Shown here: positions 1-38,004 of the stretch, in pieces
Numbering within the stretch: position 1 is the stretch's first letter
How the letters are laid out: every line of letters begins with the position of its first letter
From: an uncultured Christensenella sp.
Lineage (GTDB): Bacteria > Bacillota > Clostridia > Christensenellales > UBA3700
DNA: 64,000 nucleotides
Assembly (NCBI GenBank): GCA_964478025.1
Contig: CAYZGK010000001.1
Location: 23,631 to 87,630, forward strand
Direction: 5' to 3'
Made by a program: the position numbers and the translations under genes
The notes under the pieces: model-generated
The model's input: the letters and a program-made list of their open reading frames with translations, nothing else
Databases searched by the model: none
What the model was told of the DNA's origin: nothing

Positions 1-1
1 A

Positions 2-865
2 GAAAATGATGTAAAGCCAGTAAATATAGACCCTGAACTAAATACAGGTATACAAGACATGATTTGTTTAGGTTCTATGTTAATGCAAGGTTTAATTGAA
101 GGAAAGACTGAAGATAGTGCATTCTTTAATGAATCTAATATGGACTCTAAGGATAAGGAAGAGAAAGAAAAGGAAAAAGAAAAACAAGAAATAACGGAAC
201 AAACGCCAGAAAGTGAAGAAGAGCCTAAGGAGGATGAGGAAGAGAAAAAAGAAACTCCAAAAGAGGCAATTGACCAAGATGTTGTTCCTGATGATGTAGA
301 TAAAGTTGAAGAAAAGAATGAGGAGCCTAAAGAGGATGAGGAAGAAATTCCACCAATTGAGGAGCCTGAAGTAGACGATGATGAGGATGAAGAGGACGAA
401 GACGAAGACGAGGATGATGATGAGGATGAAGAGGACGAAATCCAAGATGTAGGCCTTATTGAAGAGACTCGTGATATGTTCCAAAGAACTGCAGATGAGG
501 TTGCTTTAACTAAAGCTGAAATGACCAGAATAAATAAGGCCATAGATAGAGTACTTGAAAAGGTTAAAATGGAAAATGCAGCCGCCTCAACATCAGCGGT
601 TTTAGATAAGATAGATAATAAGGAAGTGCTAGCTGAAAGATTAATTGCACAAATAGAAAAGGAAAGGGCTATGATTATGCGTGCAAAGAAAAAGAGAGAA
701 GAAGCATTTAAGCGTGAACAAGCAGCACTTTTAAAGATAGAAGAAAGAGAAACGCAAAGACTAGCTCAGCTTGATGAGCAAATAGCAAAACATGAAGCTG
801 GAGAAACAATGGATGAAAGCATTGTTTATGCTGGCTTAAGTGAGACAAATAATGGGGCAAGCTAA
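2..865 (+). CDS. hypothetical acidic coiled-coil protein, 5' end outside the window
   Basis: The frame is open from nt 2, with no stop before the ATG at 59 that the ORF track uses. Stop TAA at 863-865. The translation has a long D/E tract (EVDDDEDEEDEDEDEDDDEDEEDE, about nt 365-440, GAN-codon low complexity) and then a K/E/R/A-rich, heptad-like C-terminus. No family recognised. Confidence 0.5.
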   Translation, partial: ENDVKPVNIDPELNTGIQDMICLGSMLMQGLIEGKTEDSAFFNESNMDSKDKEEKEKEKEKQEITEQTPESEEEPKEDEEEKKETPKEAIDQDVVPDDVDKVEEKNEEPKEDEEEIPPIEEPEVDDDEDEEDEDEDEDDDEDEEDEIQDVGLIEETRDMFQRTADEVALTKAEMTRINKAIDRVLEKVKMENAAASTSAVLDKIDNKEVLAERLIAQIEKERAMIMRAKKKREEAFKREQAALLKIEERETQRLAQLDEQIAKHEAGETMDESIVYAGLSETNNGAS

Positions 866-1607
866 GAAAACAAAAGTCCCAAAGTGGCTTTCTATAACAC
901 TTAAGATTATAGAATGGACCTTAATACTTTTAATAGTTGGTTGTATGCTAAAGCTTATAGCCCAAAGAATAGTAGGTGATACGCCTTCGCTTTTTGGCTA
1001 TACAACATATACCGTGGTTTCAGATTCTATGGATCCAACATATAAAGTTGGAGACGTAGTAATTTGCAAGAACATAAAAAATCCTAAGCCTGAGGATTTT
1101 ATAGTTGAAGATGGTGAGGAAAAACCAGTAATTGCATTCATTGCTCCTGAGGGCTTTGACTATAAAGGACTGCTTACAGGGCAAACGGTAACACATAGAA
1201 TATATGGAGAACCGTATGAAGAGGATGGTATTTGGTACGTGCATACAAAAGGAGATAATGAAATAGCAGTCTTAGATAGCGTGCCAGTGCCACTAGATAA
1301 CATAAAGGGTATAATAGTAGGTAAGAGCAGTGTTATTGCCTTTCTTATTAAAATCTTGCAAAAATGGTATGGATTTGCTTGTATTATAGTAATACCACTC
1401 CTTGCGATACTTATTTGGCAAGTTATAATACTAGCAAAGGCTGGAACAGATAAAAAGGCACAAAAACTTGAAGAAGAAAAACAAGAAGAGATTAAAAAGC
1501 TTCAAGAAAAGGCAGTACAAAACGTGCTAGATAACGAAGAAGAAATAAAGAAAAAAGCAATAGAAGAATATATAAAGAAAAATGGAGATATAGATGGCTC
1601 TAAGTAG
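852..1607 (+). CDS. signal peptidase I, SipW/Sec11 (ER-archaeal) type, paralog 1
   Basis: N-terminal TM (WTLILLIVGCMLKLI), catalytic Ser box VVSDSMDPTYKVGDVV, His box VTHRIYG, a second C-terminal TM (FACIIVIPLLAILIWQVIIL), then a K/E-rich tail. The ORF-track start at 840 is GTG. I chose the in-frame ATG at 852, but either is possible. The gene overlaps the upstream stop and the downstream start (1594). Confidence 0.8.
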   Translation: MGQAKKTKVPKWLSITLKIIEWTLILLIVGCMLKLIAQRIVGDTPSLFGYTTYTVVSDSMDPTYKVGDVVICKNIKNPKPEDFIVEDGEEKPVIAFIAPEGFDYKGLLTGQTVTHRIYGEPYEEDGIWYVHTKGDNEIAVLDSVPVPLDNIKGIIVGKSSVIAFLIKILQKWYGFACIIVIPLLAILIWQVIILAKAGTDKKAQKLEEEKQEEIKKLQEKAVQNVLDNEEEIKKKAIEEYIKKNGDIDGSK

Positions 1608-2466
1608 TAAAGAACAAGAAAACATCATAAAAAACAAAACAATAAGAGCGGCTTCAAATAGAAGAACCGCAACAAAGATTATTGTTATTGTTCTTATTGC
1701 GGCTCTTTTAATAACAGGAGGCGCCTATGGTGTTATGACATATATTGATGCAAATACTATGCTTATATCTATATCTGACGCAAAGGATGGTTTAGCACTT
1801 TGTGAAACTTCAGACTTTTTAGAATATACAAATAACCTAGATATGAATGCACCAAGTTCAATTGATGCATATACATATCCTTGGTTTAATATACAAAGTA
1901 ATATCTTAGGTCAAGATGGTGCCCATCATGGTGCGGCGTATGTAGCGTATAGTTTTTATGTTAAAAACATTAGTAAAACATCGACATGTAAGTACAATAT
2001 GGGTATAAGAATTATTCGTGATACAAAAAATATCTCATCAGCGCTAAGAGTGCTAGTAATTGAAAGTGATGAAAATAACTTAAATGAGGTAAGCTCATCA
2101 CAAGTTTATGGTAAGGCAAAGAGTGATGGAACGAGCGAGTATGTATCTTATGATAAATGTGAAAAAGATCAACTTGGAGTGTCGCTTGAAGAACTTAACG
2201 CCTCATATGCGCTTTTAAATACAAATATGGCAACACCATTTTATGGAGAGCTTTACGATGATGATACAAATGAGGACCTTGGTTATTATATAATGTTTGA
2301 AAAGGACAAGCGCTTAACTTATAGCGCCTATAAAAAATATACAATTGTAGTTTGGCTAGAAGGAACTGATTTACAATGCGTAAATGACATAGTAGGTGGA
2401 AAGTGTTCAATATCTACAATATTTACAGTAACAGAATATGAAGAGCCAGAATACTATGGAGCGTAG
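1594..2466 (+). CDS. exported protein, candidate SipW substrate (TasA/camelysin-like by context)
   Basis: 290 aa. GGAG lies 6 nt upstream of the ATG. Basic N-terminus, one hydrophobic segment (IIVIVLIAALLITGGAYGV), then a beta-rich S/T/N/Y ectodomain. It sits between the two sipW-type genes. The family assignment comes from context and the N-terminal motif only. Confidence 0.5.
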   Translation: MALSSKEQENIIKNKTIRAASNRRTATKIIVIVLIAALLITGGAYGVMTYIDANTMLISISDAKDGLALCETSDFLEYTNNLDMNAPSSIDAYTYPWFNIQSNILGQDGAHHGAAYVAYSFYVKNISKTSTCKYNMGIRIIRDTKNISSALRVLVIESDENNLNEVSSSQVYGKAKSDGTSEYVSYDKCEKDQLGVSLEELNASYALLNTNMATPFYGELYDDDTNEDLGYYIMFEKDKRLTYSAYKKYTIVVWLEGTDLQCVNDIVGGKCSISTIFTVTEYEEPEYYGA

Positions 2467-2472
2467 AACTAA

Positions 2473-3498
2473 ATGAGTAAAAATAAGGAAGAGTCTAAAG
2501 TAAAAAGAATAGTAAATATTGTTGTAATGGTAGTTGAAATAATTGTCATAATTTTAGCAATTGTTCTTGCCGTTTCAGTAATATTTGGTTCTAAAAAGAC
2601 TGAAGAAGATTTAAGTAAAGGATATAACTTAACGGTAGTTTTATCTGACTCTATGAATGGTAACATGACAAAAGATCAAATAAAGACCATTTATAGCGAA
2701 TCAACACATCCAATAGGTTCATTTAATATAAAGGATTTACTTATAGTAAAGGCCGTATCAAGTGAGGAAGACTACAAATCTTTACGAATTGGCGATGTTA
2801 TAACCTACATAGGAAATGTTAATGGTCAACAAGCTTTAATTACCCACAGAATTATACAAATAGATAAAGTTGTTGATGGAAATCTATATACCCTTGCATA
2901 TTCTGATGAGAACAATGTTATTCATAAACATGAAAACTATGAAGAGCTACAAAATGCAGATGGTTATTATAACTATTTAACACTAGGAGACTTACAAAGA
3001 AACGATGATGGAACATTTGAGCCATCTCAAGGAATATTATATGAAGAATCTCAAGTTCAAGGTGTAGTTCTATCCGTTATTCCAAAGGTGGGCGGTATAA
3101 TTTATTGGTTCTTAGATTCAAAGCATTTCTTATGGTCTGTTGTAATACCACTTGCGGCCCTTCTTGCGTATAATTTGTACTTACTTGTAAAACTTATAAT
3201 AAGTGCAAGATTTAAAAAGCTTGAACAACAAAAACAAGAAGAAATTGAAGCTTTAAAGAATTCTATTATGGCTAATCAAAATCCAGTAAATACTGAGGCA
3301 AACTCTCTTGAGGAAGAAATAAAGAAAAAAGCCATTGAAGAGTATTTAGCAAAAATAGCACAAGAGGCTGTAGAAAAGGAAAGGGCTAAGGCGCTATCGG
3401 GGGCGGATAATACAACTATTTCTAGTGAAAAAATAGAGGATAGCGCAAAGGATACAAACAAACAAGACACTGCGCTTGAGGATAAAAAACAAGAGTAA
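2473..3498 (+). CDS. signal peptidase I, SipW/Sec11 type, paralog 2
   Basis: TM (IVNIVVMVVEIIVIILAIVLAVSVI), Ser box VVLSDSMNGNM, His box ITHRIIQ, C-terminal TM (LWSVVIPLAALLAYNLYLLV). The K/E-rich tail shares KLE(E/Q)(E/Q)KQEEI and EEEIKKKAIEEY with paralog 1. There is a larger insert between the Ser and His boxes. Confidence 0.8.
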   Translation: MSKNKEESKVKRIVNIVVMVVEIIVIILAIVLAVSVIFGSKKTEEDLSKGYNLTVVLSDSMNGNMTKDQIKTIYSESTHPIGSFNIKDLLIVKAVSSEEDYKSLRIGDVITYIGNVNGQQALITHRIIQIDKVVDGNLYTLAYSDENNVIHKHENYEELQNADGYYNYLTLGDLQRNDDGTFEPSQGILYEESQVQGVVLSVIPKVGGIIYWFLDSKHFLWSVVIPLAALLAYNLYLLVKLIISARFKKLEQQKQEEIEALKNSIMANQNPVNTEANSLEEEIKKKAIEEYLAKIAQEAVEKERAKALSGADNTTISSEKIEDSAKDTNKQDTALEDKKQE

Positions 3499-3507
3499 GG
3501 AACATGT

Positions 3508-4329
3508 ATGAAGGCGGAAAAGATAATAACACCAATACTTCTTATAGTCGTGTCATTTGTGGCTCTAATGGCCACATTTGCATGGTTTGCGTCTAAAACT
3601 ACGCAAACGGTTAAAGGTGTTATTAAATCTGGCGATGTTACGTCCTTTTCAATTGCGGCAGGCAATGAATATATGGATGGAGATTGTATAAAATATCCAA
3701 CTCCATATGAAGGTCAAAAAGGATATGACTCAAATGGTAATATTTATACCACGTCAGATAAGCCTTATGAAATGAAATATAATTTAAGTTTCGTTATGAA
3801 ATCTAGTAGTGATTGCGTAATGAAAATTTCAATAGCAAAAGTTATTGTTAATTTAACAGATAAATACCCATATACTTTAGCTCAAACAATTGAAAATGTA
3901 TTAGGCGTAAGTGGAATTTTAGAGAGTGATTATACTAAGTATTACTCCTCGTCCGTAGATTCACTGCCAACAGGTGAGGGAGCTTCGCCTTTTTATTGCG
4001 TATATAATGAAAAGACACAGAAGGTTACAAGTATAGTTATAACTGGGGGTTATGTAGATAGATATTTTTGCTTTGATTATTGGAAAAGTGCTGAAGAGAT
4101 GATAGAGAGAGGAGACACAGATTCACGGTATGAATCGGCATTATCTAGTGGTATGAATTATACATATGGCGTAGATGTATCGGCTTCTGGTATAACAAAC
4201 TATATAGGTTTATATATAGGCTTTTATGGATATAACCAAGAAAGAAGTACGTACAGCGAGGAGTTTAGATTTTCAGATCAAACAACATTCTTAAACTCGT
4301 CATTTAAGTTTATATTCTCAGTGGGGTAA
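3508..4329 (+). CDS. exported protein, candidate SipW substrate
   Basis: 273 aa. N-terminus MKAEKIITPILLIVVSFVALMATFAWFASKT: a basic n-region, an h-region, then the T-F-A-W-F motif typical of TasA/camelysin-class signal peptides. AAGGAA lies upstream of the ATG. Confidence 0.55.
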   Translation: MKAEKIITPILLIVVSFVALMATFAWFASKTTQTVKGVIKSGDVTSFSIAAGNEYMDGDCIKYPTPYEGQKGYDSNGNIYTTSDKPYEMKYNLSFVMKSSSDCVMKISIAKVIVNLTDKYPYTLAQTIENVLGVSGILESDYTKYYSSSVDSLPTGEGASPFYCVYNEKTQKVTSIVITGGYVDRYFCFDYWKSAEEMIERGDTDSRYESALSSGMNYTYGVDVSASGITNYIGLYIGFYGYNQERSTYSEEFRFSDQTTFLNSSFKFIFSVG

Positions 4330-4332
4330 TAA

Positions 4333-4992
4333 ATGGGTAAAACAAAATTAGCAATTTTAATAAGTTCAATAGCTATAATTGTTTTAGTAGTAGCGTCAGT
4401 TACTGCCTATGCCTTTTGGGGCGGAAATCCATCGCTTACTATTCCTGATGAAAATTCAGCTAATATAGACAACACTACAAATGTTACATATAAATATATG
4501 GTCTTTGCACCAAATGGAACATATACTAAAGACTATAGATTGTTTTTTGATGAAGATACGCAAAAGTTTAAATTATACGAAATCAGCACTGATGGATCGT
4601 CAAAGAGTTTAAGTAGTGACACTATAACCTATACAAATGTAGCATTAATTGGGTATATAGGTTCGTTAGGAGAGTATGAAAAGGCGATTATTCCTGAAAG
4701 TATAACGGTTGGAGATAGCAGCTTTAGCGTAACTAAAATAAATCTTTACATGACAGATTATGATGATTTAAAAAATATTACGAAAGTGAGTGTGCCAAGT
4801 GCTGTAACAAGCATTGAAGGGGCCTCATTTTCAGGATGTGGAAACTTAAGTGAAGTTTATTTTGAAAATGAAACTTCGCTTCCTTCTATTTCTAAATGGA
4901 GCTTTATTGGAGTTAGTGGCAATATTAAATATTACCAAAAAAGTGGAGACACATACACGGAACTTGGAGGAATAACAAAACTTGAAGAATAA
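4333..4992 (+). CDS. exported protein with BspA-type leucine-rich repeat (LRR_5-like) C-terminus, candidate SipW substrate
   Basis: 219 aa. N-terminus MGKTKLAILISSIAIIVLVVASVTAYAFWGGN. The C-terminal part (VSVPSAVTSIEGASFSGCGNLSEVYFENETSLPSISKWSFIG) matches the BspA/LRR_5 repeat pattern that also occurs in the S8 protease at 44810. Confidence 0.6.
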   Translation: MGKTKLAILISSIAIIVLVVASVTAYAFWGGNPSLTIPDENSANIDNTTNVTYKYMVFAPNGTYTKDYRLFFDEDTQKFKLYEISTDGSSKSLSSDTITYTNVALIGYIGSLGEYEKAIIPESITVGDSSFSVTKINLYMTDYDDLKNITKVSVPSAVTSIEGASFSGCGNLSEVYFENETSLPSISKWSFIGVSGNIKYYQKSGDTYTELGGITKLEE

Positions 4993-5587
4993 GGCACTTA
5001 TAGCTAGTATTATAATTTTAATTATAGTTACTGCAATTATTGCAGTATCTGTAAGCTACGCCTTTTTCTCAGTTGGAAACTCTGAGTTTTCTCTTGAAAT
5101 TTCATCTGCAACAAGCGCTGAGATTGCCTTAACGCTAGAGATGTCTAATACTACGCTTACGCCAAATTCGACGCATTCAGGTGTTGGAAATTATACAAAA
5201 TCTAGTGTAGTTAATGATGAAAAATATGCAGTTTATGCTATTAAATATAACTGCTTATCTACTGTAAATGTTGGGTGGTATGTAACTAAAGCTTCATATA
5301 TAGATGGGGATAATAACAGTTTAAGTGATGGCAAATCTACATACTTAGATAAACATCTAAATTATAGCTTTATAAGGGTAGACTCTTATGATGCAAGTAA
5401 TTTACCAGAGGCAACATCGTGGGTTACAAAAAGCACAACATATACGATAAATGATACTCCACAAGGTGAAGGGTATATGCTTGTTTATGTTAAATTTGAT
5501 GTATCTCAAGAACTTGTTCCAGAGTTTTTTGATGATGTAAAAATCTCATTCACAATAGCAACTGAAATTGAGAATACTCAAAGTTAG
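4982..5587 (+). CDS. exported protein, candidate SipW substrate (TTG start)
   Basis: 201 aa. TTG start at 4982, with GGAGG at 4966-4970 (11-nt spacing). It overlaps the upstream stop by 11 nt. N-terminus (M)KNKALIASIIILIIVTAIIAVSVSYAFFSVGN carries the same motif class. Confidence 0.5.
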   Translation: MKNKALIASIIILIIVTAIIAVSVSYAFFSVGNSEFSLEISSATSAEIALTLEMSNTTLTPNSTHSGVGNYTKSSVVNDEKYAVYAIKYNCLSTVNVGWYVTKASYIDGDNNSLSDGKSTYLDKHLNYSFIRVDSYDASNLPEATSWVTKSTTYTINDTPQGEGYMLVYVKFDVSQELVPEFFDDVKISFTIATEIENTQS

Positions 5588-5759
5588 AAAAGCCCTTAAA
5601 ATATACTTTGCCAAAAAATAGACAAAATATGCCAAACATTCGATGGCTGCTAATATTTAAAGAAAATTTTACATTAAGAATTTTTTAAGAAAAGTTTAAG
5701 GTTTTATGTAAAATAATAATTAAATTTTTAATAATTTTACCATTTTAAGTTTTGTTTTA

Positions 5760-5788
5760 TTGAATCTTTAATTGCGCCTATATATATT
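5760..5788 (+). promoter_or_regulatory. putative sigma-A-type promoter of the giant gene
   Basis: TTGAAT (5760-5765), a 17-nt spacer, then TATATT (5783-5788), inside a 235-bp AT-rich gap. The RBS AAAGGAG lies upstream of the ATG at 5823. Sequence match only. Confidence 0.3.
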
Positions 5789-5822
5789 ATATATAAATAT
5801 ATAATAAATAAAGGAGCGACAA

Positions 5823-8800
5823 ATGCTTAAAGAGAAAAAATCCAGCATATTAGTTATAGGCATTATATGTATAGTCATAGCTATGCTTGTCGTTTCTTTT
5901 ATGTTTAATCAAGGCCATGAAGAAGTAAAAATTTTATCTACAAATGAAATTTCTTCTGCAAACACTTCTACTTGGTCAAATGGTTATGGACTTGCTTCAA
6001 ATGGTGATGGGCTAGAGGATGGTCAAGTACCAAGTGGTTATAGTAATACATCTGGTAGTTCTAACTATACATCAAGCACTGGGCAACTTAAAGGTTCAAC
6101 AAATTATTATATGTCTTCTGATGTAACATTAAATGTTTCTTCCTATATTGAGGATCAAACCGCATATAGTGGAATTTTTGATGGTTGTGGTCATACTTTG
6201 ACAATAATTAATAGTGATAGAGATGTTTCCTCTGATATTAAAGGTGATACGAGCTATTATAGAGGAATTTTATGTGGCGTTTTGTCTGGAACTATAAAGA
6301 ATGTAACAATTGTTATACCTTCTAATTCTTATGGACTTCATATAGTTAGTAAGTGGATACAATCTGGCAGTGGACATTGGGGGAATCAATCTAAAGGTGC
6401 AGCAAAACTTTATTTTGGTTATATTGGTCATACAATAAGTGGCGGAACTGTAAATAATGTTAAGATAGTTTATAAGTCAAGTGATAAACTGATAAAATTA
6501 AATGTAGGATATGGTACAAATACGTTTTGTGATGCTCTTATGTTTGGCCTATCTAATGGTGGTACAATATCTAATACAACACTAAGACTAGAGTCTAATG
6601 TGGATTTGCATACATGGGTTCAATATGGCACAGATTATTTTGGTCATGCACTATTTGTAGGTTATACAAATAGCGGTACAACTACCAATATAAATGGCTG
6701 TTCTATAGAAGGTAGTGGTTCATTATCTAATTCTAAATGGGGTGGCTCAGGTGTTCGTGCTAGATTTGGGCTTCTTGGTGGTATTATAACTAACGGAACT
6801 TTTAATGTTAATGGACTAGACTGCGGTGGCTGGACAGGAGGCTTTAGTTGGACTGACGCTGCTTTTCAAAGTGGAGATTACCATGCCGGCACTTTTGTTG
6901 GTGAAACATCTTCAAGTACTGGTGGAGATATAACTAATATTTTTTATTCAGCAACCGACAGTGGTATAAAAAAATTGGATAATTCTCAATCAGCATGGCG
7001 TAGTGGTTCCCAACAAAATAAATATGCGACAGCAAATTTTCAACAATACACGATATCTTACTCAAATATAGGATTTTGCCATTCAAATACAAGCAATATG
7101 TGGGTTGGTGAGTTGACTTCATACTCTGGAAGTGGAAATTCGACAACAGGTTCATTTGTAAATAGTATAACAATGAATAGTACTATATATGAAACAGGTT
7201 CATTTATTGCATATAGAGGAATTAGTAATAGAGCGGTACCTATAATTGCAGTATCTTCTATAACAAGTGTAATTTCCGCATATACAAAAGGTAGTTATGC
7301 TTATGCTAATCCTGATATGGTAAATACAATCTCTGGTGGTCCTACATTTACAAAGACTTCATCAAATAATTCTACAAATGTTTATTCAGGAACATATAAT
7401 GGAACTGCAGTATCATCAGTAAGCTCTGTTGTAAATATTTATAGAGCAGGCAATAAAGTAAAAGAATATTCTATTCCTTCTTGGAATTCAACACCTAGTG
7501 GCAACAAAAAAGATGTAGGAACTTATACTTATTTATATAATTATTCAAGTATAAGTAAATATAATAGTTCTGAGGCTCAAGGTTTCTATCTAGAAGCAAA
7601 TAAGGAAGTTTCAGACTATTATGTTCTTTTACCATCAGGAAGCGCATTTAGCGTTCAATTAAATATAACTCGTGCGCCACTTACTATATCATCAAGTAGC
7701 TACACGGGTACATATGATGGAAATTCACATAATATAACAATAAATGGCTTATTTAGTAATAGTGGTTATGTAAATGGTGAAACATTAAGTAGTTTATTAT
7801 CTTCGGGATACGCAACGGTTTCTGTTGGTTCTTTAAGTGGGACAAGTGTAACTGAAAGTAATTTTAATAATTTAGCAATTACATCAGTTTCAGATAGTGT
7901 AAAGAGTATTCCAATTTCCATTTCATTTACAAACTATTCTATAAATAACGCTAATAGTTATAGCAAAACTGAAACTATAACAATAAATCCTGTTAATTTA
8001 ACTATAACTACAAGTGATTATAGCAATTCTTATGATGGAGCTATTCATGGCATTCAAACAACAGGAAATATAATTTTAAATAATGAGATTCAATCATCAG
8101 GTTATGTAAATGGTGAAACGCTAGCATCAATTATACAAAACGGAAAAGGAAGTTTTTCTGTTTTATACAACTCCGTTGCTGACACAACACCTAATACAAC
8201 AATATCGGGTGTTGATGCAGTAAATGGGTATTCATCTCTTGCAATATCTCATGTAAAAGATAGTGTAAGAACTATACAAATAAACTTAAGTTTAGTTGAC
8301 TATATAATTAATTCAACATCTCATGATTTTACATCAACAAATACTATAACAATTACTCCAGCATCATTAACTCTTGATGAAACTATAGTTAAAGATTATG
8401 AGTATTCTGGATATTCTTTATATGAAAATTCGGCAATAACTGATAGGGGTTATGAGTTTTATAATAGTGTTTTGCAAGCAGCACAAACAAGTGGATCTCC
8501 AGGCCTATCTCTTTTAAATTATGACCAAATGATTCAAAATAGAGAATTAACATTTACATCAAGTGCTACAACTGTTTTAGACGTTAATTCTTATACATTC
8601 ACTGTTCAAGCATCTTCTTCATCTACAGGCTCAGCTGAGGCTGACTTTACGCTTCAAGGTGAGCATACATTTAGTTATAACATTACAAAAGGAACAACAA
8701 TTTTAAGTATAACCTTAATTGGAAATAGTGATGTATCAACATACACTGGTACAAGTAATACAGCCTCAGGTAGTAAAGTTTATAACGATCAAAATGAACC

Positions 8801-11800
8801 AATTCCTACAGCAAATATTACACTAAATAATGGTGGTAAGTCATTAGGAGAAGCAACAAAAACCATTTTAAAAGATAATTCAACTTATTATCTTGAGAAT
8901 GCAAAGAAAGCTGGCGTATATAAAGTTACTTATAATTTCTCAGGTACAAATAATTATGAAGCCGTTAAACTTGTGTACACATACACAATAGATAAGGCTA
9001 CAACATATATAGAATTTACAACAATTGGAGATAAACTAGGAGCAGGTGTTTCTAAGCAAGTAACTTCAGGTAGTTTTAGTGAGAGTAAAATGTTTGACTT
9101 TGATGCTGTTACAATTCCTACAGCTTATGTTAGATGGTATACAGGAAATGATGGCTCAACAGGTGTTAGAGAAGAAACTATATCATATACATCAACTGCT
9201 TCAATACAACCAGGCTCTAATGTATCTGATGCTGGTGTTTATGATATAACCTGGTCGTATAGCGGCGGAGATAATTTAACCGCATGTTCTTGTATTTATA
9301 CTTATACAATTGAAAAGAATACAATTACTTTTGGTTTTGCAAACTCTACAGGTTCTCAACAATTACAAAGTTGTGCGTTATCTGTTTCTACTCTTTTAGG
9401 TTCAAGTTATGGTAACTTAAATGCAACACTTAAAAATTCAAAAGGACAAACTATTCAAGTTATAACTGCGGGTGTTTCACAAAAATCTAAAGTATCTTTA
9501 ACATCAAGTAGTACATATACATCACTATATCCAGGAGAAGAAACGTCATTTACAGGAACTGAAGTTCAAGATTGTGGAACTTATAAATTGATTTATTCAA
9601 TGACAACAAGTGACACAAACTATACTGTTACAACAAATCCTGCAACATATACATTTACTATATCTCAAAGAAGAATGTATCTTTTATTTGATGATACAAA
9701 AGATCTATATGATTCAATTATAGATACAACTGGCAACTATTATGATTTCATATTCGTAAGTGGCGCCGATAACATTTCTAAGATAAACTCTGTTGCTCAA
9801 GATTATTCAAGCTATTTTACAAAAATCGTTGAATGGGGAAGCGGAGTAGGAAGTGGTCATAACTTTAAAGATTATTTAACACTAACCGCAGGGGTAACAG
9901 ACAAAACACCTGTTGGTAATTATTACTTTAGTGTTGAATGGAATGAAAGTGCTACAAATAAGACAATTTTAAATAGATTAAGAAATAACTATAAAGCAGG
10001 CGTTTTAGATTCAAGTAATGTTGTTATAGGAACAACAGGAAGTGGATACTCTGCTGGTTATACAAGTTACTGCGAATCAGCTAAAAATACAAATGGATTT
10101 AATGCAGCAGCTGCAGATTCTAGCTATGAAATAAGAATTAGAATCGTAAGTAATGTTGACAAAACTTTATCATATACAGACAGCCAAGATAATTGGTCAA
10201 TTTTAGATACCGGTTCTGCTTCAGATGTTATAACATTCATAAATGGTCACTATTATGACTCAGATGAATACGCATCCGCTACATCTGCTACAATAACTTC
10301 TCAAGTTTGGATTAATAGAGCTTTTGATGGTTCTAGAATAATGGCTTCATATAAGACATTAAATGGGAATAGTCAAACTTGCGAAATAAAGATGTGGCAT
10401 GATGTAGAAAATAATACTGATGATTTTAATAATGGTACCGGTGTTACAGCACAAATTACAAGTAAAGGCGTATATACACATGCCTCAGATGCTTCAACAA
10501 GTGAAACTGGTTATACAGGAACTTATGATCAAGGATACCCAGCATATACAACAATAGATGGAGAAAAATATTATGCAGGAGCCTCTTTAGTTGCATTAAA
10601 TTATGGTGTAATAAAAGGTTTTAATTTTAAGTGGTATGTTGAAAATATACAAAGTTGTGGTAGTTATAGATCTCCTAGAATAACAATACAAGGACATCAT
10701 AATAGAAACTCTGCAGTTGGCACAATTTCTGGAATAAACTGCGGATATATAACTGGATGTAAGATTTACTATCAAAGACTATTAACATTTGAAGGAACAT
10801 CATCAAGTTATAACTTTGCTGCAGGCTTAGTTGTTGGTATAAATAATGGTTATATGGCTAACGAAACATTTGAGTTAGTAAAAGACATGGAAAATTATAG
10901 ATCGAGTACTGTATACGCAAGCCATATTTATAGAAGTTTTATAAATGTGTCAGGTACCGCAAAAAGCATATATGCAGGTTTAATTTGTGGAACAAATGCT
11001 GCAGATGGAACTATAGAAAGTATATCTCGTTCAGGGCAAGTCCCATTTAGTGTTGAAAGTTTAACCGGTAGTGTTGATGTTTATGGTGGTGGTTTTGTTG
11101 GAAAAAATACAGGAAATTTAAATAACTTAATATACAACAACACAATGTCTACTATAACATCTACAAATGATTCTCGTTGGTATAATGGTAATTATAATGG
11201 AGATGGAGGAAAAACCTATTATTATAAAAATTATGAGTTAAGATTCTATGCCTCAGCTAATGTTTACGCTGGAGGTATTGTAGGATATTCAACAGGAGAG
11301 ATTAATAATTGTCAATATAACTCAGGAACAAGTACATCAGATGGTGGAAACTTACTTGCTACAGCAGGCTCTGGTAATACTATAGCTCTTGGCGGTATTG
11401 CTGGATATATCGGGGGCGGCGGCAAAATTATCGCATGTTCTGTTAAAAACTATGGCTGCATATATGCAGGCAGTGATTCAGTTATAGTTAATGCTTACGC
11501 TCTTGGTGGAGTTGTTGGTGTATCTTCAGGTGGAGAGATAGATGGCTCTTCTATTTCAAATTATGGAACAATTTTTGGTAGAGCAAGTGGGGCTGGCAAT
11601 AACTATGCTGGATGTTTCTTAGGCATAGGATGTGAAGATGGTAATGGAACAACCTCTGCAGCTACTTATACGTCAAGTAATAGAGTTAAATTTGGCACAA
11701 CAAATGTTGAGCCTGGTGTATTTACTGCATCAACTTCGTTTAACTATGGAACAATTGGTGCAAATTATGGTTCTTGGGGTTATATAACAGGAAAATATAA

Positions 11801-14800
11801 CACAATACTATCTGACTCAATATCTGATGGTTATGATTATGCTCACACTTATGGTGGTTTAATTTGGTATACAAATAATACGCCAACAAATCATACAAAG
11901 TGTTTGTTTGGATCAGTTGCTTCAATTCTTGGAGATAATAGTGTTACAGATAGCAGCTCTTCAACTGGAAGAAGAACGCTTACTTCTACAAATGTATATA
12001 TAACAGGTATCGCTGGTATAAATATTGGAGATTGTGGCGATGGAACGTTAGGAAATCAACTTTTAGATGATGTATCACTAAATACAGAAACTGGTGAAAT
12101 AAATATATCATATAATTCAATAAGTAATATAACTCAAACAAATGCAGGTTCAGCATCTTTCTATTATGGTATGGATGCGTCTGTTAATGGAAATACTGTT
12201 TATATAACACCAAATGGTGGTAGTAAAGTAGCATATACAGATGACCTTGGTGCTGGCGTATTTACAATGTCTACTGCCGATGCAAATGCAATTATTACTG
12301 ATACAACAGTTGAAGCTACCATTTCTACTGTAAGAGTAAGAACTTATTTATATATAGGTTCTTATGAAGAATATAAAGATTTCGTTCAAAATACTGGTTC
12401 ATCAAATTATTCTGTATATAGATATTGTGCAGGTTATGGTACACTTTCAACAAGTATGGAAACAGGTAGCATAGTTTGGTCAGGAGTTTTAAATGAGTAT
12501 AAAACTTTTGATGGTGCTAATAAAACTATTACATATACAACAAATGCAGCCGTATCTGTTTCGGCTGTAAGTGGAAACTGGAATGGTAAAAATATTTATG
12601 TATTAGGAACGCTTCTTGGTGCTAATAATGGTTATGTTAAGAGCGTTAATATTGTTGTAACAACTTCAGCCGATACTTCTTACTTTATATTTGATACAGT
12701 ATCTGGAGCAAACATGGTATATGGTGTTGTAGCAGGAGCAAACTCAGGAACTATTGACTGGTGTTCTGTAACGCTAAAAGGTGGCGGAAAAGTAGGATTA
12801 ACAGCCTCTTCATCTACAAGTGGAAATAGATACTCTATAGGTGGAATTGCAGGCGTTAGTAGTAGTTCAATTACTCATTGTAATGTTAAGTTTGAAAACA
12901 ATACAAGACTTGGATTAATGTCAGGCACTTATACAAATGGCTCTTATGCAGCAGTCGGTGGAATTGTAGGAGCTCAGTTTGGAAGTGAAGTATCTAATTG
13001 TGCAGTTGTTGGTAAAGGTTATATATTAACAGAAAATTCAACAAGCTCAGATATTGTATCAAATCCAAACGGTTATGTTGGTGGTATAGGTGGATATCTT
13101 CTTGTAGCTAAAGATGGTAGAGATTTAACCTATATGGGACTAAACGTTGGAGTATGTAAAGTATATAATGTTGTAGTTGCTTTGTTTGGAGGTATTGAAA
13201 GTGCTAGCACCTCATACGTAGATGGTAGTACGGCTGCAGGTGTTGGTGGAACTGGTTATATTTCAGGTAAAGGCACTGCATTTGAAAATTCATCATCATA
13301 CGATACTTTAAAGACGCTTAATTTAGGTGCATGCTTTATTATAGGTACCGGAGAGCCAACAGCTGTTGATTGGAAAGCAGCTGCTGTTCAAAATACAATA
13401 TTTGGTGGTGTAGTATATAACGAACATGCAACAGATAAAAAAGCAGCAAACAAAGAAGCTTATGTTGAAATGTATTGGTATGATATTCCAGGCATAGCAT
13501 TCTTATCTTTAAACGATTATTCAATTCGTGGAAAGGGTGTTGCTGAAATGGTTAGCTCAGCTTCAATTTATGTAACATTCCCAACAACCTTCTTTGAATC
13601 AAATATAAGTGCAGGTGGAATAACTATATATTTCTATAACCAAAGTAATGGTAAAGTTAAATTGAGTTTAACTTCACTTTCTTTAACAGTAAACTCAAAT
13701 GCAACATATATTAATACAGTTATTACAAATATATCTAAAGATGGAGAAGGAACTCCAACTTCATCAGATCAAGGAACAAGTACCTCTACATCGCTTGGTG
13801 GCTATACAGCAGTTGAAGGCACATCCGTAATGCTTAAACTTAAAGTTAGTTATTCTGTATCTATTGCGGGAGAAAATATTAAATATGATAGTGCAACATC
13901 GCTAGTTCAAAGTCCATTCTATTGCTTTATTTCAGGAAGAGGAAATAGAATCGTATACGCAGGTGCCAAGGAGGCAACACTTACTGACAATATAACTTAT
14001 GATAAGAAAGTTTCTGCAGCTATTGAGTTTGCAGAAGGTAAAGTTTTAAATGGAAATGGTAATACATTCTATTCATATTGGTCAGGAAGAAATGAAAGCG
14101 AAGGTGGTAACTATGTTGCCGGTTTAACAGATGGTCTTCCAAGTGGAACTTGGGCTGATAATGGCTATGATACTGTCGGTGGCAATAGAAGAGAGTCTAA
14201 AGACTATCCTTATTGGTATGAACTAAATGGTAAAGATTTTTATGGTGTTTCAGATTTAATTTCTATAAATAGAGGAACAATTAAAAATTTAAATGTAAGC
14301 TATAGACAAGAAGAAGGTAAAACTCATGATTATGCCGGCATGAATGCCGACACCGCTTATGGTGCTATTGCTGGAATTAACTTAGGTACAATAGAAAATT
14401 GTACAATAACATATAATTGTACATCTGTTTACATTGGTGGTGGTGCAGATTATACGCTAGTTATGGGAGCCGCTGTTGGTATAAATAAAGGTACAATAAA
14501 TGGCCTTACTGTGAATATGGCTTCTTCATTTACTTTATCTGGCTCTATTGGTAATAACTTATTCTCAAGTGGTGTTGGTATAAACTATGGAGATATATAT
14601 AACATTGATATAGTAAATACAGCAGGTGTTTACTTAACGGCCACCTCTGATGGTAATTCAAGTACAGTTGCTGGGGGTATTGTTGCAATTAATAATGGCG
14701 GTTCTATAAAGTATGCAAGAATTTCAGGAGAAGGCCAATTTAAGATTGGAACATATACAAAAAATACAACAGAAACTCCAACAGAGGTTGAAGTTACTGA

Positions 14801-17800
14801 TGAAAATGGTAATAAGACAACAGTAACTACAACAGTAACTACAACAAGTTATACATATAGTACAAAGTACCTATACTTTGCAGTAGGTATTGCTATATCT
14901 AATAATGGAAGTGAAGAAGAAACTCTTCCAGGACTTGTAGCTTCAGTTGCAAGTTGTATAAAGAATAACGATAACCCGGTTGACCATATAATTATAGACT
15001 ATGGTGGCGATATATATGCTTATGCTCAAAACTATATGACAGGAATAGCCTTTGCTCATGCTGGTTCTTCAACAACAGCAGAAGGTGATTTAAGATATGG
15101 CAATATTTTCTGGAATAGCGATTATAATACAAATATAGCTCTTGCGGTTGAATCAACGGGTGGTACAAACTTGTTCCAAGAAGGAACTATTGCATCCGCT
15201 GGTTTCCCATTAATGGGCTACACTGGAAATACAAATAAAGGAGATTTCTCTTTTGTTAAGGGTGCTCAAATTTATTCTAATGTTGAAGAAAACTTAAGTT
15301 GGGATCTAAATACTGGTAATTTAATATTCTCTTCAACAAATTATGCAATGTCTAATTCAAAGACATTTGAAAGTTTTGAATCTTTATATATGCCATCGCT
15401 TGATAGACAATATGATTTTGTTGGTTCAAATAATACAAGCGACTACTATACATTTACAAAGGGAAGTTCTTCTTCAAACACAACAATATCTATAACAGAA
15501 AAAATGATGGATATGCTTGTTGTAGATGCTACTTCTAACTATAGCGGCGGAGCGCTTAGAGTTAATATAGAGTTCTTCTTCCCATATGTAGAGATAAATG
15601 ATATTTATCAACTAGTTCAATATATTTGGTTTACAAGTGATGATACGGGTTCAGATAAGATATTTAATTATTATTTAAGAACTTATGAAACTCAAATAAA
15701 ACAATTAATAGATGCAGGAGAAAAGCAAGCATCAACAGCAACTCCTGTTGATGGAGATTATTCTGGTGCTTGGTGTACAGAGGCGGATTGGGGCAGTGTT
15801 TCGCGTAACTGGGGCTATACAGCCGATACATCCGATACAGCCGATACAGCCGATTTTGATGCACGTTGGATTACTTATAATGGTGCAAATTACTATATAT
15901 TACTTGAAAAATATTGCTCTAATGGAGATATTCTTCCAATATATTCTTCAAATAATGCAAGATTAACAAGTGATATTGTATTAGATAAATATACATACGC
16001 TGATGGCGCTACTACAATGAGCGTTGATTTTGGATTTAATTGTACTTCTTGGAAGGAGTACGCATCATCAAAGAAATTAGATGGACAAAAATATTCAATT
16101 ACAATTGTTGCAAGTGATTATAACCATAATAGTGGAAGTTCTCTTGGTTCATATTCTAAGTGGGCATATGTTAAAACTAGAGCTGAACATTCTGGAAGTA
16201 TGTACTCAATGACATCAGCTACAAATTATGCTAATAATTATAGTGTTAACTATGTGCCTTTACAAGATATAGCAAATACTCCAGGTAAAGGATCATCAGG
16301 CGTATATATCTATGGTGGTTTCTTAGGTATTATAAGAGGCGAAATTTCAAATGTTAATTTTATTTTACAAGAATATTCATTAATTAACATTGTAAAAGAT
16401 ACAGTTAATACCGTTTCTTATGAAGATGGCGATAATAAAGGAAATAGCGAGTTTAATACTTATGAAGCCAGTTATTCGGATAGTTCTTTAGACTCAATAG
16501 CTTTACCAAGATCAGTGTTTGCTGGAGTTGTTGCAGGTTATATAACTGGCAAGATGGATAGTTGCTCTTTAACTATGGGACAATATTCTCAAATTTATGT
16601 TAATAAGTTTGGTGCAATTGATGATGATAATTCAATTTACCACGCAGCATTAGTTGGTGGTTATTGTGGTCTTTTAGGTAATGACGCACAAATTTCTAAC
16701 TCAACTTTAACTATGGGAGAAGGTGTAAATATAGGTGTTAAAAATACCGGTATAAGAATGGCTTCTGGTTTAATAGCTTATAGAAAAGGAACAGTTAGAG
16801 CTTATGCAGGTGGCTTTGCGGGAATGATGGTATCAGGAAGCTTAATGTATAACCTTGTGTTAGAAGGTGTTTCAACATCTAAGATATTTGCATTTACAGA
16901 TGGCCGAACATGGGGACTTAATTGGAACTATTACGCATCCTTTGACACATTTGCATCTACTGCAGGTGGCATAGTTGGTTGTAATACAAATAACTCATAT
17001 TGGAATAAATCTGGTTTAGGTCATGGTTTAGTTGATGGTGTTATATTTAACTGGGCAGGTGCATCAATTTCAATGTTTAATAGTAGTACATCAACAAGTT
17101 ATGCTGCAAAACAAGATATGAGTATTTACTACATAGGTGGTAATATTGCGGGTGTTGTTGGCAATGGAGATAATTTAAATTTCTCAATTTCAGGTAATGC
17201 AGAAACAAATGAATATGTAAGAAATCTATATTATGTTTATGAATTATCTTCATATAAAACATTGTATCAAGAGCATGGAGATATATATAGTTATTCTCAT
17301 AATAGTTCTCAAAGTTATATAGCAAAAGGAAACATTTACATTTATGGACCTAGTGCGGGAAGTGCTGGATTAAACTTCTGTACATTAAATAACTATAAAT
17401 CTTCATATATAAGAAATAGCGATGGATCATATAGTTTAGGTAGCGGAGACGGCTCTGTAATATTCTCTGGAGATAGTGATCATCCAGGAACAATAGTTGA
17501 TGGAAACCTTGTTTGTGTATCTGAAGCTATGAGTGGAAGTACTATTATAACTGCAAGAACTCTAACACTTTGGGAATTAGAGACTGAATCAGTTATAGGT
17601 ACTGGTATAAGTTATACTGGTGCAACATCAACAAAGAGCGGAAATAATTATATTTATGAATCTACCTCATATAATGATACTAGCTTTAAGCCATCAAGTA
17701 TTGGATATAAGCAAATAACAACAGGACTTTCAAATATTATGTCTTGGGCAGATACTTCAAGAAACTCAAATGTTAAGTTCTCATTTGAAGTAGATGATGA

Positions 17801-20800
17801 AGATACAAGTAGCGTAATGTGGGCTATAGATATCTATAAAGGAGTAATTGATGGAAACTCATTGCGTAGTGCTGAAAATACAATATCTGAAATTCCAGTA
17901 TATGCGTTTGCAACAAGTTTACAAGATTCTTTAACCTATAAGAAACAAGAATATACAATTATAAGAGGACAAGGCGATGGCATGAAAATTATGTATTGTA
18001 CAGGAAGTGCCGCATCTCTTAGCCCTAATAAAACTTATTATACAAACGAAGTCTCTGTAGATAAGGCAGCATATTATGCTACAGCTGCAATTATGTATGA
18101 TGGTTCAACTGATGCAGCAAATGAAGCATTAACAATTTATGATAGTAATGGAAATAACATAGAAAGGTTAGAAGATAATATAAAGGATAGCATTGTAACA
18201 ACCGCTAAAAACGATGGAGATATCCTAAGAACGGTATATAAACAATCTGGAAATGCCTGGAATGAGGTAGATTCAGAGGCAGATCTAACCGCAGTCGGTT
18301 ATTACAAAGTTATTTATGAGGTTCTAGCAAATGAAGACTCGTATGGTGTTATAAACCCTAATGCTTATGTAAATAGAGATTATAGAACACAATTCTTCTC
18401 ATCAGATGGTTCAACTTCAACATATTTTAAAGACACTGGAAATTATCTAGTTGAAACATATACCTTATATGTTGCAATAGCTCCAGTATATTTAAATATT
18501 ACAGAAATAAAGAAAGTTTATGATGGTTCAACAGATTTTATCTATAAGGGAAGCGATGACACTAACTATTCTTCAGTAACAGCTCAAGTTGATCAAAATT
18601 TTGCTTATGCAAAAGATGGTACAATTCCATCAGTTTCATGCAGTAATGGTGTTATTAAATCTAGCGTTGGAACAAATGTTCAAATTACATTAGATGCAAC
18701 ATATGATAATGCAGATATTGGTGATAGGTCTATAACATTAAAGACAGAAGGTACTGTATCTTATGTTTATTGGCAAAAAAATAGCGAAGGTAAATGGATT
18801 GAATGTAGCGTTGAATCGCCACTTCTAAAGTCAAGTAATTCAAGTGAAAGAAAAGCATACTTCTCTCTAACTATATTAAATAGCGAATTGTCTTCAACTG
18901 ATGGTGCAAAAACTTATGGATATAAAGATAGCCTAGCTAGTGGTTATACAATAACAAACGGCTCAACTGTTACAAGTTTTGATACATCACTTACTTGTAA
19001 AGTACATATAGTTAAAGCTAACGCTCCAACAATTACGGTTACTGATCCTACTTTAAGTTATGTATATACAGGAAAGAGTATAGAGTATGGCGTTGAGTGG
19101 GCTAGTCATATTACAATTACTGACCAATTTGGATCAGTACTTGACCCAGAAAGTATGATAAATAATAAAGAATTAACAATAACTGGAGATGGAACAGCTG
19201 TTAAAGATGTAAAAGCCTCTGGTTATACAATTAAGTTTACTATAGCATACACGGGCACGAAGTATGGAAATACAACAACAGAATCAGAGGTAACTATTTT
19301 TGTTACTCCAGCACTACTTACAATAACAAAAGCAGTAAAGGAATATGATGGTAAAAATGATGTATCAGTAGCTTCATTTGCTTATAAGGCAGATGGTAAG
19401 ACGTCTGGTCTTTATGAGCAAGATAAGATAACCTTTGCAGGCACTTATGCATCAAGTGATGTAGCTTCTAGTTTAAATGTTAAAATAACAACATCACAAA
19501 CAACTATAAATGGAACACAATATAAGATCGTTGGAGATAATTATTATCTTGAAAATGATACAATAAACGGAATTGGTGTAATTTATCCAACAAGTGCAGA
19601 GATTGTTCTTGCAAATAAGGATTATGATAAAACAAATACAGTAACTTATACTGGCTCTGGGGATATAAACAAGACATCGATATTAATTAAGACAACATCT
19701 TCATCTATCCTTGGTGTTACAGTTGTTAACATTCAGCCTACTGCAACTTATTCAAATAGCAATGTAGGTAATTGTAATTTACAAGTATCTTTAAATACAT
19801 TTACATATGTAAATGAAAAGGGAGCTTCAGTTGCATTATATAGACTAGAAGATAGTAATTATTGCATAGAAGATGCAACATCTACTTCATATACAGCAAC
19901 AGGTAAGGCTTATATAATTCCAGTTAATATGACTATAAGTTATATTTATAAGACATATGATGGAACAACTGCATTCCCTGATGATGATGCAAATTATATG
20001 CTATCTAATAATAACAACGAATTTACTAAAGTTGATGGTTCATTCTCTGATGCAAATGTTAAATATGAAAATAACAAGTATAATGATATTAATGTAAGCG
20101 CTGTTGCATATACTTATATGTATGTATCTAATGGCACTACAGCATCAAATACTGTTTATAGAGTTCAAAGTTCAGGTAGTGCAACTAACTATACGCTTGA
20201 TGCAACATTATCTGGTTCAACATATGTAGTTGAAGGAATAGGCGTAATTATTCCTAAACTTGTTACTATAAAGAATGTAACAAAATTATATGATGGTAAA
20301 AACACATTTGATACAGTTAATTTTTATGCAGATAAAGGTGAGAAATGGGAAATTGTTGATGAAAGTGGTGCCTCTGTTAATTATCACCTAGTTGGAACAA
20401 TGGGTACATCTTCATCTGATGGTAAAAATGCAACAAATGGTAAGAACTTATATCAAGTTAACTTAAATGGTTCTTCAGCTACAACTCCTTGCGTAGCAAC
20501 ATTTACATTTAATGGTGTAGATTATATTTGGCTTCATTATATGTATAATACAAATAATAACTATTATGTAACAAGTACAACAATTGCAGGAATTGGTGAT
20601 GTATTACAAAGAACAATTAATGTAGCACCATCAGGTACTGGAACATTAAGTTCGCTTTCATTTACAGTAAACTCAAAAGTAAATACTTCAGGAAAGGTTA
20701 ATATACAAAGTGGAAGTGCATCAGCTACTTATCTATTTGGTCAATATTATAGTATTGATAACTTAACAGCTACATTTAACTGGAGCGGTTCAAGTCCAAA

Positions 20801-27422: not shown

Positions 27423-27457
27423 TATTAACACTCCAATAATCTATTTATCTATATTAT

Positions 27458-27585: not shown

Positions 27586-27722
27586 TGCCTTTTTACTTAA
27601 TAAATGTGTTCAAAAACATTCCATAATTTTAAAAAAGTTAATTGAAAAAGCAAATTATAGTAATAAATTCCGATTTGTATAATATTTAAAAGTTATAAGC
27701 GATTTTTTTAGACAAATAGTGT

Positions 27723-27762: not shown

Positions 27763-27777
27763 AACGGAGATGTAGTT

Positions 27778-32855: not shown

Positions 32856-32890
32856 ATGATACAATAAAATCATAATTGGAGGTCCCGAGT

Positions 32891-38001: not shown

Positions 38002-38004
38002 AAA

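Follow-up and report, generated by a model that had tools for sequence, protein, structure and literature searches.

A CoCoPALM-type gene cluster with SipW-like signal peptidases and their likely exported substrates in an uncultured Christensenella

What does a bacterium build with two signal peptidases of its own, encoded in alternation with small exported proteins and followed by the gene of a giant polypeptide? This question is raised by the start of a 64,000-nucleotide stretch of DNA (hereafter the window; positions 23,631 to 87,630 of contig CAYZGK010000001.1) from an uncultured Christensenella sp., for which a preliminary description, made from the letters and their open reading frames (ORFs), had proposed a TasA-like fibre operon with two SipW-type signal peptidases (here SP1 and SP2), four small subunits (P1 to P4) and a giant adhesin as possible cargo (Table 1). 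We found that observation to be largely right, with the key context, an McrBC-like module and the likely major subunit, lying just outside the window: positions 1-25202 are well supported as the distal part of a cluster of the CoCoPALM type. With a confidence slightly better than even, we read this cluster as one in which SipW-type export supplies a TasA-like fibre, with P1 as its base and a GTPase that would gate or drive its assembly.

Genomically, the ORF listing and an analysis of the junctions confirmed a tight, same-strand gene set at 852-5587. The packing first reported (seven genes with overlaps or gaps of at most 9 nt) was borne out, with successive junctions, from the first ORF through P4, of −14 (the overlap of the McrC-like gene with SP1), −14, +6, +9, +3 and −11 nt, and with a spacer of 235 nt between P4 and the gene of the giant protein. 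The seven genes had been described as running from the window start; SP1 through P4 are complete, but of the first only the C-terminal 287 of 559 amino acids (aa) are present. When the contigs of P2 homologues were looked up, a 98%-identical contig (L001) showed four extra genes upstream on the same strand, so the operon is cut by the window start, and the first ORF of the window is the C-terminus of a DUF2357 protein. The full order in L001 is a degenerate EAL protein, a 385-aa exported protein, a transmembrane/coiled-coil McrB-like GTPase, the nuclease-less DUF2357 protein, SP1, P1, SP2, P2, P3, P4 and the giant protein.

The McrB-like GTPase aligns with Escherichia coli McrB (PDB 6hz4) at E 2.6e-7, and its homologues carry GT(I/A)N(N/I)DDST in 71 of 71 cases, together with a Walker A motif GISGTGKT. 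By inspection, its N-terminus holds a transmembrane segment at about aa 52-80 and a heptad-like charged helix at 88-116, a candidate counterpart of an FtsB-like extension. The C-terminal 270 aa of the DUF2357 protein (window 59-865) comprise an acidic tract and long charged helices, and no nuclease domain was found in the L001 protein or in five homologues. The pair therefore lacks the make-up of an McrBC type IV restriction system, its McrC homologues having DUF2357 only and its GTPase opening with a transmembrane segment and a coiled coil. The combination of a membrane-tethered McrB-like GTPase with a DUF2357 protein in one operon places the system in CoCoPALM, an already named and so far uncharacterised class. 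The name comes from a census of McrBC systems that delineated a clade of NxD-motif GTPases fused to an FtsB-like transmembrane/coiled-coil domain, in which the residue after NxD is usually E or another D, and that gave CoCoPALM two sentences and deferred its analysis (Bell et al., eLife 2024; PMC11090510). The supplementary files of that paper hold no text on CoCoPALM, and no later paper using the name was found in our literature search; a co-mention of SipW and McrB in a Clostridium perfringens paper was incidental. The first gene of the cluster encodes an EAL-domain protein, which is degenerate in the window lineage and strong in Acutalibacteraceae; EAL scores in other lineages reach 146-165 bits (L057, 4178-4972; L020, 5062-5808), and a divergent locus (L086, 7958-8638) has a PilZ protein in its place. 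The presence of EAL or PilZ genes suggests that the cluster is under cyclic di-GMP (c-di-GMP) control.

Is this association more than local? We scanned genomes with the McrB-like protein and then applied our own ORF calling and phmmer searches to the loci. It yielded 79 loci with identities of 46-99% (≥53% in all except two), every one of them from uncultured Clostridia (Christensenellaceae-like, Acutalibacteraceae and Ruminococcaceae/Oscillospiraceae). The McrB-like protein was recognised in 78 loci, the DUF2357 protein in 77, SipW-like peptidases in 79 and P1 homologues in 68 (first pass), and two further, more divergent loci (L085 and L086) hold the same parts. Together with a very large exported protein, these parts co-occur in about 80 species of gut and rumen Clostridia. 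As to the conservation of gene order, proposed earlier as a check, the parts recur in the 79 loci, and the place of the peptidase block differs between lineages. In Acutalibacteraceae the usual order is EAL, P1-type, exported, peptidase, exported, peptidase, McrB-like, DUF2357 and very large exported protein, whereas in the window lineage the block of peptidases and exported proteins lies 3' of the DUF2357 gene instead.

Both peptidases were rightly recognised as being of the endoplasmic reticulum/archaeal type. SP1 has SDSM at aa 57-60 (1020-1031; Ser59), THRI at 114-117 (1191-1202; His115) and GDN at 134-136 (1251-1262; Asp135), SP2 has SDSM at aa 58-61 (2644-2655), THRI at 124-127 (2842-2853) and GD at 172-173, and hydrophobic segments are present at the N- and C-termini of both. 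Membership of S26B was judged by a score at the curated cut-off of TIGR02228 (archaeal-type signal peptidase I), by Ser-His-Asp and by the lack of a Lys base: SP1 belongs by score (52.4 bits against a cut-off of 51.85), and SP2 is below the threshold (27.1 bits) but conserves Ser, His and Asp. The two are 26% identical (E 4e-16). Among 118 aligned peptidases of related loci, Ser is kept by 118, His by 117 and the two Asp by 109 and 107, and SP1 and SP2 have retained all four residues. That SP1 and SP2 are S26B signal peptidases of the active type, with intact catalytic residues, is well supported. With 67.5 and 35 bits against the SipW equivalog NF046067 (cut-off 190 bits), neither is a member of it, and both class as SipW-like rather than as SipW orthologues.

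After the C-terminal transmembrane segment, the charged cytoplasmic tail of SP1 carries EEEIKKKAIEEYI (1536-1574) and that of SP2 EEEIKKKAIEEYL (3310-3348), a motif that reads EEEIKKKAIEEY(I/L) in both, with the consensus (E/D)(E/D)IK(K/R)xA(I/V)EEY(L/I)A(K/Q)Q. A loose form of this pattern occurs in 94 of 119 peptidase homologues, at times in two or three copies, and the coiled-coil McrB- or McrC-like proteins may dock there. Two peptidases are encoded in 23 of the 41 loci with full flanks and one in 17. Some related loci (L030, 15804-19975; L023, 14295-18498; L062, 12710-16038) have a second block 3' of the McrC-like gene that resembles the SP/P2-P4 block of the window, with additional small peptidases (as many as four peptidases in L030) encoded in turn with small exported proteins.

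The small exported proteins encoded beside these peptidases share a characteristic signal end, which reads M-A-T-F-A25↓W26-F27 in P2 (3571-3588), T-A-Y-A27↓F28-W29 in P3 (4402-4419), V-S-Y-A27↓F28-F29 in P4 (5051-5068) and …TATYA↓WFSS in the upstream 385-aa protein (arrows mark predicted cleavage). The motif of P2, P3 and P4 is kept in orthologues at 38-39% identity, which answers the earlier question of its conservation: T23, A25, W26 and F27 of P2 are invariant among homologues, and the P4 orthologues in L007 and L009 retain T-F-A↓F-Y. In P2, P3 and P4 the motif is real and non-random. From related loci we further gathered 86 non-redundant N-termini, using a loose pattern that demands Ala at −1 and aromatics at +1 and +2 and that was met in 4 of 121 control ORFs. 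The Ala at −1 (86 of 86) is thereby fixed by construction; position −3 is T in 69 and S in 12, −2 is Y in 46 and F in 30, +1 is W in 74, and +2 is F in 68 and Y in 14, giving the consensus T(−3) Y/F(−2) A(−1) W(+1) F(+2). The sole stretch that hhalign aligned between the family profile (see below) and TasA sets TYAWF against TWAAF. In the PDB the TasA fibre chain starts with residue 28, which places the cut in TasA behind that Ala, and it is from this register with T-W-A↓A-F that cleavage at T-[YF]-A↓W-F is predicted here. The likeness of the latter to G-T-[WF]-A-x-F is read from inspection and from the hhalign register.

P2, P3, P4 and the 385-aa protein are likely substrates of SP1 and SP2 with a predicted cleavage site, and the SipW-dependent export of cognate proteins, as judged from their sequences, is well supported; the proposed pairing of SipW-type peptidases with cognate exported proteins whose signal ends resemble those of TasA and camelysin has in this sense stood up. 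The aromatic motif had been assigned to all four small proteins and to the giant; it stands for P2, P3 and P4 but not for P1, where it is degenerate, nor for the giant. Type IV pilin-like (class III) signals were also considered and rejected, given that there is no G↓F-T-L-I-E-type leader, that the motif comes after the hydrophobic stretch and that none of the cluster genes was recognised as a prepilin peptidase.

P1 has a basic cytoplasmic N-terminus of 27 aa, then one transmembrane helix, and its GGAYGVMTY is the degenerate counterpart of the motif (A-Y-G-V-M aligned with T-Y-A-W-F); a degenerate motif behind such an N-terminus speaks against P1 as a cleaved subunit, the role first given to it. 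Evolutionarily, an iterative hidden Markov model (HMM) built from the mature domain of P1, with signals masked, defines a family of 180 ORFs in 78 loci, of which 105 bear the motif; another 72, of the P1 type, lack the aromatic pair and have a transmembrane segment and a long, basic N-terminus in the cytoplasm. By a stricter count, exactly one motif-less P1-type member, plus one or two motif-bearing members, is found in 38 of the 41 full loci. The 385-aa protein falls in the same family (hhalign probability 91.5%; hmmsearch E 3e-20 for the L008 orthologue) and is likely the major subunit, encoded upstream of the window. That P1 is an anchored paralogue of this main exported family is well supported, and it is probably an uncleaved type II anchor, a membrane-bound paralogue of the exported subunits. 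The signature W254-x-E-G-x-D-x-x-C262 of P1 (2353-2379) is near-invariant across the P1/385-aa family, with Cys in 116 of 117 sequences (alignment A2), and this invariant Cys occurs in strict anaerobes. The family extends to 9446 representative clusters at E≤1e-3, of which 4739 remain at a threshold of E≤1e-10; no Pfam domain was found in 73 of its members, whose names are only 'hypothetical'.

The other three small proteins are of a different kind. P2, P3 and P4 are unrelated to each other and to the P1 family (hhalign probability <1%), and blastp among P1-P4 aligns the transmembrane regions alone, so the idea of four paralogous subunits was rejected; what had been described as four comparable subunits is one anchored member of a large family and three mutually unrelated proteins. 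P2-P4 are genus-restricted, found only in a few close relatives: P2 has homologues in only nine clusters, two of them close, P3 has orthologues in L007, L008, L009, L015 and L016, and P4, whose TTG start is called identically in L001, has no Pfam, NCBIfam or PDB match. The BspA-type leucine-rich repeat (LRR) domain noted in one small protein was confirmed in P3 (Pfam LRR_5, 29.0 bits against a cut-off of 27.7), a candidate adhesive accessory or tip protein. LRR_5 is common to P3, to large proteins of related clusters and to a 2151-aa protein in the window (44810-51265) that has S8 subtilase, PA and Fn3-like domains and five BspA-type LRR_5 stretches.

The giant protein has a single N-terminal hydrophobic segment, no LPxTG and no Pfam match at 1e-3. 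Its GLUG label could not be kept (Glug 15.8 bits, under the threshold of 20.5), and its supposed aromatic motif, VVSFMF, has no small residue at −1 and is not kept in the L007 orthologue; the giants of most other loci have ordinary Sec-type ends (…VYA↓NQE, …VFA↓ETY). The linkage of the cluster to a giant exported protein did hold across lineages, with a large exported ORF (1000 aa or more, or 500 aa or more if truncated at the end of the locus) after the core in 54 of 62 evaluable loci, and those annotated show LRR_5, Flg_new or M26_N-like repeats. We rejected the idea of one conserved cargo protein, the giants being without homology across lineages, and we therefore prefer to speak of a conserved position for a large exported protein; the giant is probably a surface adhesin that is linked to the system by position.

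Table 1. Features of the cluster in the window and in the 98%-identical contig L001.
Feature	Location	Strand	Description
Degenerate EAL protein	L001 1528-2655	same strand as window genes	375 aa; EAL 27.8 bits, below cut-off
Upstream exported protein	L001	same strand	385 aa; starts MKKSTLITTIAMIVVVVVALSTATYAWFSS
McrB-like protein	L001 4121-5659	same strand	512 aa; hydrophobic N-terminus, one transmembrane segment, coiled-coil-like helix, McrB-type AAA+; NF008457 30.6 bits
DUF2357 (McrC N-terminal domain) protein	L001 5679-7358	same strand	559 aa; PF09823 43.2 bits over aa 41-163
Truncated McrC-like DUF2357 ORF	1..865	+	C-terminal 287 aa of 559-aa protein: acidic tract and coiled coil
SP1	852..1607	+	251 aa; putative ER/archaeal-type (SipW-like, S26B) signal peptidase
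P1	1594..2466	+	290 aa; basic N-terminus, one transmembrane segment, predicted extracellular beta-sandwich
SP2	2473..3498	+	341 aa; second, more divergent putative SipW-like peptidase with insertions
P2	3508..4329	+	273 aa; predicted exported, beta-rich mature domain
P3	4333..4992	+	219 aa; predicted exported, BspA-type LRR_5 C-terminus
P4	4982..5587	+	201 aa; predicted exported, TTG start, no known domain
Giant protein gene	5823..25202	+	6459 aa; Ser/Thr/Gly/Asn-rich

The remaining window is ordinary Clostridia-type chromosome of about 30% G+C. A conflict-type gene patch occupies 26241-29311 and 32876-36167, with an AAA_14/DUF4143 ATPase (minus strand), a DUF6088 and AbiEii toxin-antitoxin pair, a Schlafen/AlbA_2-HATPase_c_4-HTH protein and a Fic protein; another AAA_14/DUF4143 gene is found at 54304-55620. 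A row of genes at 36277-42265, which may be a surface-polymer acylation cluster, consists of those for an FkbH-like protein, a small ORF product, an MBOAT acyltransferase and two proteins of about 350 aa without annotation.

How far, then, does the comparison with TasA carry? Structurally, an AlphaFold2 model of P1 from a 117-sequence alignment (pLDDT, its predicted score in the local distance difference test, 86; predicted template modelling score, pTM, 0.78) shows a helix at 5-45 and a beta-sandwich, for which Foldseek returned the TasA fibre 8aur at rank 2 (E 3.4e-3, probability 0.89) and the TasA-like archaeal pilin AbpA, 7ueg, at rank 4 (E 7.6e-3, probability 0.91, TM-score 0.27/0.39). 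The P2 model, from a 10-sequence alignment (pLDDT 69.5), is beta-rich, and the TasA crystal structure 5of1 takes ranks 1-2 (E 0.04-0.06, probability 0.16). That two sequence-unrelated proteins both appear to point to TasA is suggestive, neither match being significant alone.

Several observations weigh against a TasA-like fibre cluster. The fold matches are weak, with none at E≤1e-3 and TM-scores of 0.18-0.39 overall (0.27-0.39 for P1), and the P2 model is of medium confidence only. At the sequence level, Peptidase_M73/TasA (PF12389) has no Pfam match among P1-P4 or the 73 P1-family members, NCBIfam scans of P1-P4 for TasA, Peptidase_M73 and TIGR04088 came back empty, the A2 profile found nothing among PDB sequences, PDB sequence searches with P1, P2, P4 and SP1 gave nothing meaningful, and hhalign of A2 against TasA is not significant (probability 0.7%). 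TIGR04088, the model of the SipW-cognate signal, is unmatched by P1-P4 at E≤1 and by the 385-aa protein at E≤0.1, and the signal end is therefore a related variant recognised by inspection and not an HMM member; both HMM checks named in the preliminary description, for TasA and for the cognate signal, thus turned up no member. Further, the genes for the McrB-like protein, the McrC N-terminal part, the EAL protein and the 385-aa protein lie outside the window and are taken over from the 98%-identical contig; a scan of 1-6200 gave fewer promoter-like sites than shuffles, and neither a promoter nor a terminator could be placed between P4 and the giant gene, so that the two may or may not be co-transcribed; homology comparison did not unite the large proteins of different lineages; and cleavage, polymerisation and contacts of the GTPase with the peptidases or P1 are predictions only. 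The fibre first proposed thus keeps its SipW-type export and loses its HMM link, and its fold likeness is weak (E 3.4e-3 to 0.06); a TasA-like donor-strand fibre is plausible and weakly supported.

On these terms, we posit the following course of assembly. Sec would export the motif-bearing proteins, and SP1 and SP2 would cut them after the Ala, in the TasA register, exposing a W-F… N-terminus. Once released, the beta-sandwich subunits would come together on the membrane's outer face and form a TasA-like fibre or matrix in which their N-terminal strand acts as donor, while P1 would stay in the membrane as base or nucleator, in a role like that of TapA. P2, P3 (with its LRR) and P4 would be lineage-specific accessory or adhesive components, and the giant protein would be displayed on, or held by, the fibre structure. 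This TasA-style polymerisation, with P1 as base, P2-P4 as accessory or adhesive parts and the giant on display, is plausible but unproven. On the cytoplasmic side, a ring of the McrB-like GTPase and its McrC-like partner might dock on the AIEEY(L/I) tails of the peptidases and on the basic N-terminal helix of P1 and gate or drive assembly, with c-di-GMP input through the EAL or PilZ proteins, a step that is speculative. In its most specific form, the proposal would have an McrBC-derived GTPase ring recruited as a cytoplasmic, membrane-tethered engine or gate that docks on the AIEEYL tails of two SipW-type peptidases and on the anchored paralogue, and that controls, under c-di-GMP, a Sec/SipW-dependent TasA-like fibre carrying giant adhesins; we offer this as a tentative possibility.

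Alternatively, there may be no fibre at all, and the cluster may be an apparatus devoted to processing the giant surface protein and anchoring it, in which the small exported proteins and P1 would form a non-filamentous trans-envelope or wall-associated complex, processed by the peptidases (as perhaps the giant would be too), and the McrBC-like GTPase would aid export or retention of a very long polypeptide. The giant ORF after the core in 54 of 62 loci, despite its non-conserved sequence, fits this view, as do the anchored P1 with its conserved cytoplasmic N-terminus, the weakness of the TasA-fold support and a polymerisation that is only predicted. We nevertheless consider it doubtful, in that most giants have ordinary Sec-type ends rather than T-Y-A-W-F, no exported parts are better conserved than the motif-bearing beta-sandwich paralogues, and eight evaluable loci have no giant ORF.

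A second alternative takes the N-termini of P2-P4 as uncleaved anchors whose aromatic motif sits at the membrane interface, the peptidases acting elsewhere or as scaffolds. Cleavage is predicted from sequence, TIGR04088 is unmatched, and P1 shows an anchored form within the same family; against this, the −3/−1 small-residue rule is kept (T or S at −3 in 81 of 86, with Ala at −1 set by the pattern) and followed by W-F at +1/+2, the register fits the experimentally known cleavage site of TasA, the catalytic residues of the peptidases are conserved, and the anchored P1 type is precisely the one without the motif, all of which makes uncleaved anchors unlikely. Least probable, and to our minds improbable, is a membrane-associated, McrBC-derived conflict system in which invaders would be sensed by the GTPase pair, and the exported proteins would serve as effectors or shield the surface as a layer, for although the pair belongs to the NxD branch of McrBC, whose other members, the CoCoNuTs, are predicted to be defence systems (PMC11090510), and AbiE, Fic and Schlafen-like genes occur elsewhere in the window, the six McrC homologues tested have no nuclease domain, the scanned cluster genes have no Pfam or NCBIfam nuclease, methyltransferase or nucleic-acid-binding domain, and the cluster is conserved over about 80 species beside adhesin-like LRR/Flg_new proteins and c-di-GMP domains.

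Returning to the gated, TasA-like fibre that we favour, its interest lies in the constant company in which a SipW/TasA-like module is found here, namely a membrane-bound GTPase pair of the McrBC type, c-di-GMP domain proteins and giant adhesin-like proteins. The prevailing view is that fibres of the TasA class form outside the cell without an energy source; the GTPase-driven version, if true, would be the first nucleoside triphosphatase-coupled assembly system of the TasA class. If the parts cooperate, the cluster would represent a novel means by which Gram-positive anaerobes construct fibres on their surface and regulate them, and a clear case of the reuse of a restriction-enzyme motor in cell-surface biology. 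CoCoPALM, for its part, gains testable components: the motif T-[YF]-A↓W-F as predicted cleavage site, a large family of subunits that has no annotation, a single anchored paralogue in each locus and a conserved tail motif of the peptidases.

Among known systems, E. coli McrBC (PDB 6hz4, 6ut6) shares the AAA+ GTPase (the alignment given above) and a DUF2357 activator partner, and the present pair differs from it in having neither the DNA-binding N-terminal domain nor the PD-(D/E)xK nuclease, in its membrane anchor and coiled coils, and in NxD instead of NxxD. The archaeal bundling pili of AbpA (PDB 7ueg; PMC9245690) are likewise built from a TasA-like beta-sandwich subunit that lies beyond the reach of sequence methods and that came fourth for P1; they are archaeal and without an McrBC-like module, and the TM-score is low. 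The sipW-bsaA-bsaB-bsaC operon of C. perfringens, in which secretion is by type IV pilus proteins and locking by isopeptide bonds (PMC11580942), is also a clostridial SipW operon with several exported matrix proteins only remotely like TasA and with an adhesive-domain protein (von Willebrand factor A there, LRR and giant here), whereas no type IV pilus genes were seen in this cluster, and BsaA is likened by description, not by sequence.

In Bacillus subtilis tapA-sipW-tasA, whose TasA fibres form by donor-strand exchange (PMC9674648, PMC10151520), a dedicated S26B peptidase likewise adjoins its substrates, the signal ends correspond (T-[YF]-A↓W-F here, T-W-A↓A-F in TasA), a beta-sandwich subunit is accompanied by a second, anchoring or nucleating, paralogue-like partner, and TasA structures are among the best, if weak, fold matches of P1 and P2. 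The layout nonetheless departs from the canonical one, as the preliminary description had held. There is no Peptidase_M73 or TIGR04088 match and no significant hhalign link; the peptidases are two, and their cytoplasmic tails are long and conserved; subunit and anchored partner are true paralogues; and the cluster also comprises a giant protein, a c-di-GMP protein and a GTPase pair like McrBC.

Closest is CoCoPALM itself, with which the cluster shares the McrB-like NxD followed by a second Asp (71 of 71 homologues), a putative N-terminal transmembrane and coiled-coil ('FtsB-like') extension of the GTPase, read here by inspection, an McrC homologue with DUF2357 and a coiled coil, and adjoining genes of the signal peptidase family, which accompany the GTPase in 79 loci. 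The census mentions no substrates, anchored paralogue, c-di-GMP genes or giant protein (PMC11090510), and the window lineage is further set apart by a peptidase/subunit block that lies downstream of McrC, not upstream, and by its gain of three genus-specific exported proteins, P2, P3 and P4.

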